The notes: generated by a model from the sequence alone, not told the origin. A stretch of 64,000 nt of DNA from Planctomycetota bacterium (GCA_045863855.1 BTVV01000006.1:1-64000); one strand, 5' to 3'; shown: positions 13,463 through 19,666, counted from the first letter of the stretch. Made by a program: numbers and translations.

Positions 13463-14146
13463 TTACGCCGCCGCCGGTATGCGCAGCGTTGCCGGCATGA
13501 CTTGCGGCGTGAGCACGCCCAGCGAAAGATATACCTTCATCAGATCGTCCACGCTCATCTCGGGGATGATTTGAACCGAGTCCTTCGGCGCGAAGATCAA
13601 CCCGCCGGACATCGGCACTGGGCTGGTCGGTACGTACACGAGCAGCATCTCCTGCCCGCCCATGCGGTAGGTTTCCCGGTTGGCCAGCAGTCCCAGGAAT
13701 CCCGCACTGCCTCCGGCTCCGAAAGTGCACGTACAGACGCTCATCTTGGCGAGGTCCTGTTCGCCGCTGCCTTTCATCAGGCCTACCACCTGGCTGACCG
13801 GCTTGTAGATGCTGCGAAAGATGGGGATCCGGTTGAGCAGGCCGTTAAAGATCGCCTCCAATTCGTGCCGCGCGAAGGTTCGGAACAACATACCCACCAG
13901 CCAGACGGCCACAATCACGCACGCCCAGCCCATCAAAGCGGCCAAGGTATTGTGCTCGACGAATCGTTCGCCGAAACCGCGGATAAATTCTCCGACCGGC
14001 GTGCCTTTGCCAAAGAGGCCGCGTACCTGCTCCACCGCCCAGGCCATCAAGCCGATGGTGATCGCGATCGGCAGAAGCACCAGCGCGCCGGCGACGAAGT
14101 TATTCAGGACGCCGTGGGTCCAGAGCCAGTTGAAGAATCGAACCAT
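13463..14146 (-). CDS. DUF502 family membrane protein
   Basis: FVAGALVLLPIAIT, RIPIFRSIY, VYVPTSPVPMSG, MSVDD.MKV..SLG. Confidence 0.9.
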   Translation of the reverse strand: MVRFFNWLWTHGVLNNFVAGALVLLPIAITIGLMAWAVEQVRGLFGKGTPVGEFIRGFGERFVEHNTLAALMGWACVIVAVWLVGMLFRTFARHELEAIFNGLLNRIPIFRSIYKPVSQVVGLMKGSGEQDLAKMSVCTCTFGAGGSAGFLGLLANRETYRMGGQEMLLVYVPTSPVPMSGGLIFAPKDSVQIIPEMSVDDLMKVYLSLGVLTPQVMPATLRIPAAA

Positions 14147-14209
14147 GTGCGCCTCCCCGAAGAACCGTACCGGTCCGGGCGCTGACGGAATTCGCCCGGC
14201 CGGGCGGCT

Positions 14210-15604
14210 TCAATTAAGCAATTTCTGGAAAGCCTTTACGGCTTCCTGGGCGCCCAGGAAACCAAAAAAGAGGAGCGTCAGTCCCAGTAAGAGGTTGATT
14301 ACCCAGCCGCTTTTGAATCGATCGCCCACCCAGTCGCGCCGGTTGTTGAGGATCAGCAGCGTCAGAGCCAATAGCGGCATGAAGAACGCGCCGAAGATAG
14401 CGTACAAAAGCTGGATGCGTTTGACCGGGAGCCACAACAAGACCATGGGCAAGAGCGCCAACGCGACCAAGTAGAATTTGTACTCCCGCGTCTTCGCCAG
14501 ATCGACTTTTTCCTGCGCCGCCGAACGACCGCGGCAGAGCAGCACGAAGTCGGCGAAAAGATACGGTACGCCCTGCCAGACACCCAGCAGGCTGGAGAAG
14601 ACCGCGCCCCAGAACCCGAGCAAAAAGATCCAGCGACCCCACGGCCCCATCACCTCGCTCAGCCGACCGGCCAGGATGGGCGCGTAATCGTCGCCCTGTC
14701 CATCGAGCTTCAGCCCGCTGCCCAGGCTGATCATGGCCATCCCGAAGAGGGCGGTCAGAAGATAGCCCACGCCGAGGTCGAGCCGGCAGGCGCGCACGCC
14801 TGCCACGCCTTCGCGCCGCTCTTCGCGAATCCAGTAGCCGTAGCATAGGAGCGTGGCCGTCCCGCCCACGCCGCCCAGGACGCCCAGCACCCAGCCTAGG
14901 CTGGTCGAGAAGTCCGTGCCCGATCCGCTGCTGGGAATCCGGGGCACGAGAATGCCTTGAAGTACGGCGCTGGGATCGGGCTTCGCAAGTACCGCCGTGA
15001 GCAACACCGTGCCGAACATGACCGCGATGCAGACGGCCATCGCAATCTCGAAGACCTTGAACCCGCCGAACCAGACCAGCAGAAGTCCCGCGAGGCTGTG
15101 CCCAATGCCCCAGACAATCTTGTCCCGCCGCGCCGCGTCGCGCCGGGCAGCCTCTTCGCGAGAAGAAAGGCTGCCTTCGGACTCCCCTTCGCGCGCGACG
15201 ACGGGCTCGGGTGCGTGCAGCGGCATCAGCCCGTGCCCGGCCACGCCGCAGCCGGACATCATCGCCGCACCGGTAAAGAACGACCACAGGAGGAGGTACG
15301 CGCCAAAGACCCAGCGAATCCAGCGCCCCAGCTTCTGGACCCAGCCTTCGAGCAGGGTCGTGCCCGTGGCCATCTGCCAGCGCGCGAGCCCTTCGTTCAG
15401 CACCCACTTCAGGATCGCGCCGTACAACGCCGCCCAGAGGATGGCGAGTCCGAGCTTGGAACCGGCAAAGCCGGCGGTGAGCAAGTCGCCGCTGCCGACA
15501 CCGGTAGCCGCCACCAGGATGCCCGGAAGGAGCATGGCGAGGCGAAAGCGGGGACGCTGGGCTTCGTGCAGGGACGGTTCCGGGGTATGCGCGGGCGCAT
15601 TCAT
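14210..15604 (-). CDS. NRAMP-like (YcsG/MntH-related) transporter
   Basis: PGILVAATGVGSGDL, EGLARWQMATGTTLLEG, GGVGGT..LLCYGYW; about 11 hydrophobic helices; no DPGN motif. Confidence 0.8.
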   Translation of the reverse strand: MNAPAHTPEPSLHEAQRPRFRLAMLLPGILVAATGVGSGDLLTAGFAGSKLGLAILWAALYGAILKWVLNEGLARWQMATGTTLLEGWVQKLGRWIRWVFGAYLLLWSFFTGAAMMSGCGVAGHGLMPLHAPEPVVAREGESEGSLSSREEAARRDAARRDKIVWGIGHSLAGLLLVWFGGFKVFEIAMAVCIAVMFGTVLLTAVLAKPDPSAVLQGILVPRIPSSGSGTDFSTSLGWVLGVLGGVGGTATLLCYGYWIREERREGVAGVRACRLDLGVGYLLTALFGMAMISLGSGLKLDGQGDDYAPILAGRLSEVMGPWGRWIFLLGFWGAVFSSLLGVWQGVPYLFADFVLLCRGRSAAQEKVDLAKTREYKFYLVALALLPMVLLWLPVKRIQLLYAIFGAFFMPLLALTLLILNNRRDWVGDRFKSGWVINLLLGLTLLFFGFLGAQEAVKAFQKLLN

Positions 15605-18700: not shown

Positions 18701-19104
18701 AGAGGGCGGAATGCGCGGTGCAGAATGAAGATCATCGCAATCAGGCCCAACGCGCAGATCCAGGGGATCTGAGTGCTCGGCCGGATGTTCGAATCGAAGA
18801 ACGCGTCGAGTTCCTTCGTATTCTGCGAATTGCGGATCTTGACGTACTCGTCCTTCTTGGAATCCGCGAGCGGCGTGTAGTACGCCTTGATCTCTTCCTT
18901 GCCCGGCGCGAGGAAGATTTCGTCCAAGCTCTGGTTGATCTGCTCCTGCGTCTCGCGGTCCTTGGCCCGGTCGTAAGCGTTGTCCACGAGCGAGACTTTG
19001 CGCCACTCGTGGAAGAGGGTGTAGGTGACCGCGCCGTAAGCGGCCGATCCGATCAGCAGCGCGATCAGGAACTGCGGCAGCAGCGACATCGTCTTGTTAG
19101 GCAT
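15703..19104 (-). CDS. secDF: Fused protein translocase subunit SecDF
   Basis: GIDLAGG, AIVLDG...SAP.I, L.AGSLP, VGPSLG, TLPGIAG..LT.GMAVDANVLIFERIREE, DFTGG, IGYSVNDTIVIFDRIRE, RTLIT. Confidence 0.97.
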   Translation of the reverse strand: MPNKTMSLLPQFLIALLIGSAAYGAVTYTLFHEWRKVSLVDNAYDRAKDRETQEQINQSLDEIFLAPGKEEIKAYYTPLADSKKDEYVKIRNSQNTKELDAFFDSNIRPSTQIPWICALGLIAMIFILHRAFRPLFQKQAWRMALVMIMTGGLGGYFWFLSSNGIYPMGIDLAGGTELIYRLDTSETDRRIAKEQERVASLRGKVETGEAKADDLRHTEDLITALTQSKDTAPEKAADIVRKRIDPTGTKGIPITKYGSDRLRIQLPKASPEDVEKIKRAIRTQGRLTFHLVANPSKQQAIIQAVEASEDKEADGYKQIFEVRKDAYDKKKVERIPVIVEALPMLEGSRIAHSGISRNEQGGFQVDIQFDAQGATDFGQVTQANVGEQMAIVLDGNCFSAPRINEPITGGRCQITGNFSQEEASELSNVLNAGSLPAEVVLESEFTVGPSLGHEQIDSGILATLVGAFFVAFFIWIYYRVSGFIAVVCLGLNLIILLGALGFFKATMTLPGIAGILLTLGMAVDANVLIFERIREELARGRPVRLAVQHGFDRAVVTILDSQLTTLLSGIILYYLGTGPVRGFAVTLSLGILVTILANLWICRQVFDWLVSRDAIESLPMMQMMKNPNLDYMGMSKPWIVGSMSLVGLSLAGFVMMGVVSNKIYDLDFTGGTLIQFNFAQGQEQDRASVEKTVEETLRETVRADLDAAKGKLEALAASGKKGHDLREALVKELPVLGTTQFSLSSEITPEGLLEVAGGIGEVLKDWDAVRLDAQPFGTPKEGTNTYKSFTLTTRVTQAAVIEVLGERLLEAFKGPLEPRAVEVVEHKAIRIRLDRFDKDSEQNASDEQLKAEVEKAVAAVAQEPENQEVKKTLQALKAGAAVADEAVGRTRAYVELTPVPEDALELQRVLGALRSASIKHRVEGAIGRKTQYGGQVSGEMRRDAFVALLAALAGIFMYLWFRFEFSGAWGFGASLALFHDAAVTIGAVCLVNATGILPVLLDLNMVAAILTIIGYSVNDTIVIFDRIREIKSQHPTRDMGEIINEATNQTLTRTLITAGTTMLATLSLFILGGPTIRDLSFPFIVGIFVGCYSSIFVAAPATKWWLERFGSGSMAAVRASAPAKTATADNAHV

Positions 19105-19213
19105 GACCCGTATCCTTTGTTAAAGCCGGCTTGCACGTCGAAAAGCGAATGCATCCCATCCGCGCGCTCTGCGCGGTCCTGCGCCCGATTCGATGCGGCG
19201 TGTACGGCGGTAG

Positions 19214-19666
19214 TCAGGCGGCAGGCGGTCCACGGGGAACGGCGGGAAGAGCGGTAAGCTGCGCCTGCGGGGCAGGCTGTGGTGCGCGTGCGAACTCCGG
19301 CGGCGCGAGCGCCTGGACCGGAACCCAAGCGGCCCGCCGCGGCAGAAGGGCCGCGGTCGGCACATGAAAACCTTCGTCCAGCAGGCGGCGTTCGAAGAGC
19401 GGCGCGGACGGAGCCTCGGCCTCGCCGCTTAATCCGCGCTCGATCGTCGGATGCGAAGGCGTGCGCCGTTCGGCGCCGTTATCGGAAGAAGGCCCTGCAA
19501 GCCCCAGCACCACCTGCACCGCCGCGCGGCGATCCGAGCCGGCCGGGTGCTCGATGACGCGCACCAGTTGCGAGACGGGCGTCCACGCCGCCGTCAACAG
19601 CGCCAGCAACACGCCCGTCAGGACGGGCGCGCAGAAGGCCGCGGGGCGGGTGGTGCGACGATTCAC
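19214..19666 (-). CDS. Candidate translation-arrest leader (monitoring substrate) with C-terminal RGPP motif
   Basis: GTG overlaps the yajC stop (GTGA); basic N-terminus plus hydrophobic segment; ends ...PRGPPAA; stop 110 nt before the secDF ATG. Confidence 0.7.
   Translation of the reverse strand: MNRRTTRPAAFCAPVLTGVLLALLTAAWTPVSQLVRVIEHPAGSDRRAAVQVVLGLAGPSSDNGAERRTPSHPTIERGLSGEAEAPSAPLFERRLLDEGFHVPTAALLPRRAAWVPVQALAPPEFARAPQPAPQAQLTALPAVPRGPPAA

Follow-up and report, generated by a model that had tools for sequence, protein, structure and literature searches.

The closest described counterparts of the leader peptide analyzed here are ribosome arrest peptides of the RQH (RAPP-like) family, for which Fujiwara 2024 (PMC10987492) gives four defining features: an unannotated same-strand open reading frame (ORF) of <300 aa directly before a sec gene, an N-terminal signal or transmembrane (TM) segment, a RAPP-like C-terminal motif conserved among homologs and a spacer of >30 residues between the two. 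That paper describes 11 groups before secDF and already counts RGPP members in the class, in line with a preliminary description of the present DNA, which had called RGPP a described variant. One group, uDF_RQH_WSZJ01 from the Planctomycetota class MHYJ01, lies before secDF and stalls both ribosomes tested; in another, uDF_RQH_Enterobacterales from Alteromonas naphthalenivorans (R125GPP), arrest induces secDF. In toeprints of RQH members, the stalled ribosome has the third residue of the motif in its P site, and HAPP, HGPP and TGPP are among the query motifs of the class. A RAPP-like motif by itself is no proof of arrest: when such sequences were taken from ordinary proteins of E. coli and B. 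subtilis, most failed to stall (PMC10987492).

Related systems frame the comparison further. RAPP/RGPP leaders are enriched before sec genes across GTDB (Fujiwara 2025, PMC12992588). A mutational scan of two of them, ApdA (Actinobacteriota) and ApdP (Alphaproteobacteria), found the Arg irreplaceable, Gly strongest and Pro at position 2 partly permissive, and EF-P fails to rescue either peptide (PMC12992588). The export monitors VemP (Vibrio) and SecM (enterobacteria) have spacers of ~130 residues, with published medians of 133 for VemP and 131.5 for long SecM (PMC10987492). In CruR (DUF2946, Bordetella), a C-terminal RAPP arrest controls downstream genes and provides a model for Rho coupling (PMC9426467).

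Locus organization

We use 'window' for the whole 64,000-nt stretch of DNA that was analyzed. Two titled public relatives place its host lineage in Planctomycetota, in an uncultured family; genome GC is 64%. On the minus strand, tgt, yajC, the leader ORF and a fused secDF follow one another in this order:

21287-20034, minus: tgt, first gene of the cluster (Pfam PF01702, E 4e-138)
20037-19663, minus: yajC, 5' of the leader, whose start it overlaps (Pfam PF02699, E 5e-25)
19666-19214, minus: leader ORF, 150 aa, candidate RQH-type arrest peptide, kept in 17/17 family genomes
19630-19571, minus: hydrophobic helix, residues 13-32, signal or signal-anchor (AlphaFold2 and Kyte-Doolittle; net charge +3 before the helix)
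19564-19505, minus: predicted beta-hairpin, residues 35-40 and 49-54 (AlphaFold2 pLDDT 58-71, low to moderate)
19402-19367, minus: partly conserved mid-segment, residues 89-100 (family consensus P-R-L-L-x-P-x-x-D-x-W)
19234-19223, minus: R145-G-P-P148, putative arrest motif (codons CGT-GGA-CCG-CCT)
19228-19226, minus: predicted P-site codon, Pro147, after the RQH-class toeprints (PMC10987492)
19213-19105, minus: leader-secD spacer, 109 nt, containing the secD Shine-Dalgarno
about 19117-19113, minus: secD Shine-Dalgarno AAGGA, within the leader-secD spacer
19104-15703, minus: fused secDF, 1133 aa, presumed regulated gene (Pfam SecD/SecF domains)

The GTG start of the leader shares GTGA with the yajC TGA. 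The protein begins MNRRTTRP, its hydrophobic stretch is VLTGVLLALLTAAW and the RGPP codons are followed by GCC GCC TGA (A-A-stop). Thus, a 150-aa ORF between yajC and secDF with its GTG over the yajC stop, a basic N-terminus, a hydrophobic segment and an RGPP-A-A-stop end with RGPP codons at 19234-19223, all reported in the preliminary description, were verified. Its interval of 19104..19666 was correct at 19666, the ORF start; 19104 is the start of secD, and the ORF ends at 19214.

The downstream gene is the sole secDF found in the genome. Ahead of the first SecD motif, its product carries an N-terminal extension of ~165 residues that adds hydrophobic segments, and the periplasmic part of SecF contains a long insertion. 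An Nramp-like transporter (PF01566) and a DUF502 protein are encoded 3' of secDF on the same strand (window 13463-15604).

Coding potential and selection

The leader is a real, conserved and selected gene tied to secDF. An alternative origin by chance, as an open frame in GC-rich spacer, was assessed with 5,000 dinucleotide shuffles of the yajC-secD interval. With 64% GC and a low coding score, the locus gives this idea some footing, and R[AG]PP appeared in some frame in 1,247 of the 5,000 shuffles. The motif lay within six codons of a stop in 123, and the full pattern, with at least 100 open codons before it, arose in 24, or ~0.5% for a single locus. The coding score of the leader was weakly positive (0.12 per codon versus 0.52 for yajC), whereas the five other frames were strongly negative. 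Together with in-frame conservation throughout the family, which removes chance as an explanation of the ORF, these data refute the idea.

Substitution patterns indicate selection at the protein level. Compared with the relative G002, the leader showed a dN/dS of 0.42 (13 synonymous and 14 nonsynonymous changes), versus 0.02 for yajC and 0.09 for secD; in eight other pairs, leader values ranged from 0.03 to 0.72 with a median of about 0.35. The motif codons differ synonymously among relatives. In a rough gene call of the genome (4,562 genes), RGPP was depleted (7 seen versus 43 expected), as was RAPP (19 versus 62); AAPP occurred 167 times versus 100 expected and AGPP 34 times versus 69, an under-representation that somewhat weakens the argument from RGPP depletion. 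Among 26 proteins with RGPP or RAPP, only the leader has the motif within 20 residues of its end. RNA-library contigs of a relative (~94-95% identical) run from yajC through the leader into secD and are weakly compatible with a single transcript, contigs being no proof of a transcript or of its level.

Distribution among related genomes

For conservation, we compared GTDB genomes of the same family (17), order (20) and class (62), using yajC and secD as anchors. All 17 family genomes encode the leader directly 5' of secD, ending in RGPP (12), RAPP (3), RPPP (1, G009) or CGPP (1, G010); the G013 assembly covers just the C-terminal part of the leader, and the G014 locus is divided between contigs. 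Around a variable middle, relatives thus keep both the ORF and a terminal R-[G/A/P]-P-P, as the arrest-peptide idea had anticipated. Its description as lineage-specific was borne out as well, with the leader profile matching 17 of the 62 class genomes, all within one family. Because the genomes are kin, these counts measure conservation and not independent events.

Beyond the family, both genomes of family f3 encode a leader of ~165 aa ending in RGPP before secD, with yajC elsewhere, which indicates that the leader follows secDF and not yajC. The single genome of family f2 has an ORF before secD that ends LAPP-R-T, again with yajC separate from secD; this ORF sits after a gene that we take, by eye, to be rpoZ-like. 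Across the order, 19 of 20 genomes, therefore, carry an R/C-x-P-P leader, the 20th being the LAPP case. The family profile matched none of the three f3 and f2 genomes, so their leaders are either diverged or independent. Of 42 class genomes outside the order, two lacked a secD match and two had secD at a contig start. In the 38 informative ones, yajC precedes secD with no motif-bearing ORF between them, and the gap measures 32-219 nt in 37 of these 38.

In metagenomes, loci were found with SecD as the anchor, the leader alignment being too little conserved for this purpose. Of the 30 loci, 12 with 24-28% SecD identity were left out of the leader count. Sixteen of the 18 close loci encode a leader (RGPP 11, RPPP 3, RAPP 1, HAPP 1), three of which repeat G013 and G014, and one further close locus comes without upstream DNA. 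At the remaining one, L106 (900-960), there is no leader and the yajC stop lies 23 nt before secD. In secD sequence L106 is close to G008, which has a secDF leader 66 nt past yajC and no secA leader (see below); this lineage seems to be shedding its monitors.

A profile search against 1.84 billion representatives (50% identity), which carry no genomic context, returned 80 matches. A terminal x-[GAP]-P-P was present in 73 (RGPP 48, RAPP 10, RPPP 9, HAPP 2, HGPP 2, CGPP 1, TGPP 1), a count that is partly circular because the motif is part of the profile; the synteny counts are not circular. Five matches have no C-terminal motif, most of them apparently truncated, and two others, P0037 and P0071, were rejected as very long repeat proteins unrelated to the leader.

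Several variants stood out. RPPP marks sub-lineages represented by L005, L090, L091 and L093 and by proteins P0043, P0044, P0049, P0060, P0064, P0079, P0082 and P0087. CGPP, at L009 of G010 and in protein P0004, may reflect natural loss or a sequence error. G014 (L142/L143, that is, C536 and C549; L102, L103) contains two near-identical leader-secD copies with different spacers; a long palindromic insert gives one copy a spacer of 333 nt versus 195 nt, indicating that spacer length tolerates insertions. The secD frames are broken near the start in L003/L035 (G001; four TGA inside the match) and in L066 (G054), probably through assembly frameshifts.

Leader anatomy

Leaders of the family measure 128-170 aa. 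The N-terminal signal or TM call rests on hydropathy and AlphaFold2: the best 11-residue Kyte-Doolittle mean is 2.49 in the window leader and at least 2.08 in each of 37 aligned members, where the net charge before the hydrophobic window is 0 to +6. Twin-arginine and lipoprotein signals, judged by eye, were rejected, neither pattern being conserved. AlphaFold2 (mean pLDDT 61) predicts a helix at residues 13-32 (block pLDDT 85-87), a hairpin at 35-40/49-54 and disorder thereafter. Counted from where the best 11-residue hydrophobic window ends to the P-site residue, the spacer is 105-134 residues long in all 37 members (median 123).

In an alignment of 72 rows, the position of Arg145 is Arg in 66 and P147-P148 is present in all 72, with G (51), A (12) or P (9) at position 146; the motif lies one to seven residues from the stop in every row. 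Two further segments are partly conserved. The hairpin segment, [WG]-[GA]-P-x-[AS]-Q-x-L-R-V-x-E ... R-L-V, is retained in roughly half to four fifths of the rows (P30 59, Q33 48, R36 45, E39 45 and V53 53 of 72), and each consensus residue of P-R-L-L-x-P-x-x-D-x-W occurs in 31-41 of the 72 rows, the window copy being divergent. What had initially been described as a P/A-rich linker does exist as a spacer; it is more than a linker, comprising the predicted hairpin and this mid-segment. There is no conserved Cys or His column in the 72 rows. Pfam and NCBIfam hold no family for the leader or the 37 aligned members, with best chance matches at E 0.02-0.1, and language-model look-alikes were unlabelled clusters, among which a SecM cluster at rank 28 (score 0.93) is a lead only.

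Relation to described arrest peptides

Set against the RQH class, the window leader is an unannotated same-strand ORF of <300 aa directly before a sec gene (150 aa, at 109 nt), has an N-terminal signal or TM segment by hydropathy and AlphaFold2, ends in a RAPP-like motif conserved among homologs (72 rows; 17/17 genomes) and keeps a spacer of >30 residues between signal and motif (105-134 in 37/37). This agreement with the anatomy published in PMC10987492 supports the earlier interpretation as an arrest peptide. Closest in taxonomy is uDF_RQH_WSZJ01, likewise a small secDF leader from the same phylum with an N-terminal signal, a long spacer and a RAPP-like motif near the stop. It differs in having its Arg at 104 and a construct ending at 110 with ...RGLG-RAPP-AAL, as read from the published primers, versus 128-170 aa here; the two are likened by anatomy and motif and not by sequence homology. 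uDF_RQH_Enterobacterales is likewise an RGPP leader before secDF, but controls a second copy, secDF2, via a stem-loop over the Shine-Dalgarno, whereas the leader here precedes the only secDF and no such switch is predicted (PMC10987492).

ApdA and ApdP share with the family leader RAPP/RGPP elongation arrest before secDF, which is predicted here, and the same tolerated substitutions (PMC12992588). They are defined by other phyla or classes, and no family model matches here; the distinction is drawn by taxon and not by sequence comparison. The median spacer of 123 residues lies near those of VemP and long SecM. VemP provides feedback on SecD/F and contains a cis-element within its chain, but the RxxxWKxxNxxY-like motif given for it in the Methods of PMC10987492 is absent from the leader alignment; SecM differs in its IRAGP arrest upstream of secA, in contrast to RGPP before secDF, and its model PF06558 gave no match. 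CruR senses copper via CXXC and heads copper operons (PMC9426467), and neither feature is found in the leader.

Our literature search, which covered sources other than the secDF table of PMC10987492, found no paper on this family's leader or any yajC-secDF leader, and the term 'yajC' is absent from the main text of PMC10987492 and PMC12992588. The family leader may already be among the groups in the PMC10987492 data. The mechanism class is published, including RGPP members and a planctomycete member before secDF, and the finding is expected rather than surprising; new here are the family-wide group, its position before the sole secDF within the tgt-yajC-secDF cluster, the series of natural motif variants and the question of how arrest would be coupled to secD.

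Proposed function

The leader is very likely an RQH-type (RAPP-like) arrest peptide that monitors Sec export. By analogy with tested class members, ribosomes leaving yajC would reinitiate on the leader and stall once Pro147 occupies the P site, while the N-terminal helix would bring the nascent chain to SecYEG. Working late translocation, involving SecDF and the proton-motive force, would pull on the chain and free the stall; with poor export, the ribosome would remain and more SecDF would be made, leaving upstream yajC and tgt unaffected. Such an increase in SecDF synthesis upon impaired export is again suggested by the described monitors. The natural variants R-G/A/P-P-P mirror the ApdA/ApdP mutational scan (PMC12992588), from which the CGPP leaders of G010 and P0004 are predicted to be arrest-defective.

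Two other roles for the peptide were weighed against the same data. If it were a CruR-type leader that senses a ligand or partner, it would use the hairpin and mid-segment to sense a periplasmic condition or protein instead of export force. Conserved segments do exist outside signal and motif, and RAPP/RGPP leaders control many non-sec genes (PMC12992588), but the downstream gene here is always secDF, none of 37 members matches DUF2946 and Cys/His columns are not conserved; moreover, VemP has a conserved cis-element (Arg-85) and yet is an export monitor (PMC7793623). We consider this role improbable. We would give even less credence to a small membrane protein that assists the SecDF-YajC complex and in which RGPP only slows synthesis without a regulatory role. 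Its gene would fit the position inside the yajC-secDF cluster, the conserved helix and hairpin and a dN/dS of <1 along the whole length. However, the sole near-invariant residues are the terminal R and P-P, most of the chain is predicted to be disordered and the leader evolves with a dN/dS of 0.4, far from yajC (0.02) and secD (0.09). The f3 leader, with its RGPP and unseen by the family profile, also points to selection on motif and position and not on fold.

Possible coupling to secD

For the export-monitor reading, the weakest link is how a stall would be coupled to secD. The leader-secD spacer spans 78-333 nt (median 111.5, 34 loci), with the predicted P site 96-199 nt from the secD start. 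Judging from SecM, VemP and uDF_RQH_Enterobacterales, we see an even chance that refolding of the 109-nt spacer frees the secD start. For unmasking of the Shine-Dalgarno by a stalled ribosome, two folding tests gave no consistent effect. When the ribosome footprint was kept unpaired, the predicted gain in access to the secD start had a median of 0.2 kcal/mol (33 loci) and was -0.9 kcal/mol at the window locus; the opening energy fell by at least 2 kcal/mol in 3/33 loci and rose by at least 2 kcal/mol in 4/33. With longer upstream context, the gain was 1.0 kcal/mol at the window locus and at least 2 kcal/mol in 5/19 loci. Both are equilibrium tests and leave room for a kinetic switch. The 109-nt spacer folds no better than its shuffles (z 0.86).

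The same arrest peptide could instead act via transcription: a stalled ribosome would shield the spacer from Rho or block a terminator hairpin, and release would stop transcription before secD. We regard read-through of this kind, by Rho polarity or attenuation, as possible but tentative. It would accommodate the lack of predicted Shine-Dalgarno unmasking and the distance between P site and secD start, a rho gene is present in the genome and CruR offers a precedent (PMC9426467). In the 30 nt past the leader stop, pyrimidines make up 0.58 versus 0.51 (sd 0.10) in other spacers of the genome, and C skew is 0.10 versus 0.01 (sd 0.25), a weak excess. Terminator-like hairpins with a U tract are commoner in leader-secD spacers (19/34) than in control spacers (139/484), an excess that may reflect composition because the controls come from one higher-GC genome and the loci are kin. 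On the other hand, an intrinsic terminator was sought and rejected for the window spacer, which has no terminator-like site, the 5' arm falls under the ribosome footprint in just 7/34 spacers and RNA-library contigs run through the spacer, although contigs cannot show levels. Coupling by something else appears unlikely.

Further candidate leaders

Outside the window, the same genome encodes a second leader before secA (G000:C39:26805-26440, minus; L121:2054-2419; loci L121-L139). This 121-aa ORF has a signal-like N-terminus, a conserved D-L-S-W-A middle and, in this genome, the end R-Q-T-S-A-P-stop. Among the 16 family genomes where secA was matched, 15 encode it, always with [SA]-A-P-stop and with synonymous variation, frequent ends being H-Q-H-S-A-P and R-Q-T-S-A-P; it was not seen in G008, f3 (G018, a short contig) or f2. 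No Pfam or NCBIfam family covers it, and the classified leaders of the secA table in PMC10987492 do not include its motifs; that paper reports the Pro-stop class (NSP-stop/NAP-stop) solely from Bacteroidota. The secA leader, thus, resembles NSP-stop/NAP-stop peptides as a candidate termination-arrest peptide, but in Planctomycetota, and is possibly more novel than the secDF leader.

A two-leader Sec circuit can be envisaged, in which the RGPP leader would act on the sole secDF without Shine-Dalgarno unmasking (by Rho polarity or attenuation), a conserved hairpin or mid-segment on the periplasmic side would make release SecDF-dependent and the [SA]-A-P-stop leader would stall at termination to control secA; as a whole, we find this scheme rather doubtful. 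A separate ORF, rich in His and cut by the contig start (G000:C139:1-437, plus; L145), has a hydrophobic segment and a terminal RAPP-V-V-stop. It immediately precedes a CusB/HlyD and AcrB-type efflux pair and is a candidate metal-sensing arrest leader.

Implications

If the export-monitor reading is true, a well-populated planctomycete group (73 motif-bearing representatives of 80 matches) joins the RAPP-like export monitors. Its RGPP, RAPP, RPPP, HAPP, HGPP, TGPP and CGPP variants, together with outright loss, would form a ready series for studying the evolution of arrest strength, in which the RPPP sub-lineages offer a test, set up by nature, of a Pro substitution that is partly permissive. 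Since no Shine-Dalgarno switch is predicted, the coupling step becomes a testable question. For the cell, the leader would control its only secDF, while the overlapping yajC would stay outside the loop.
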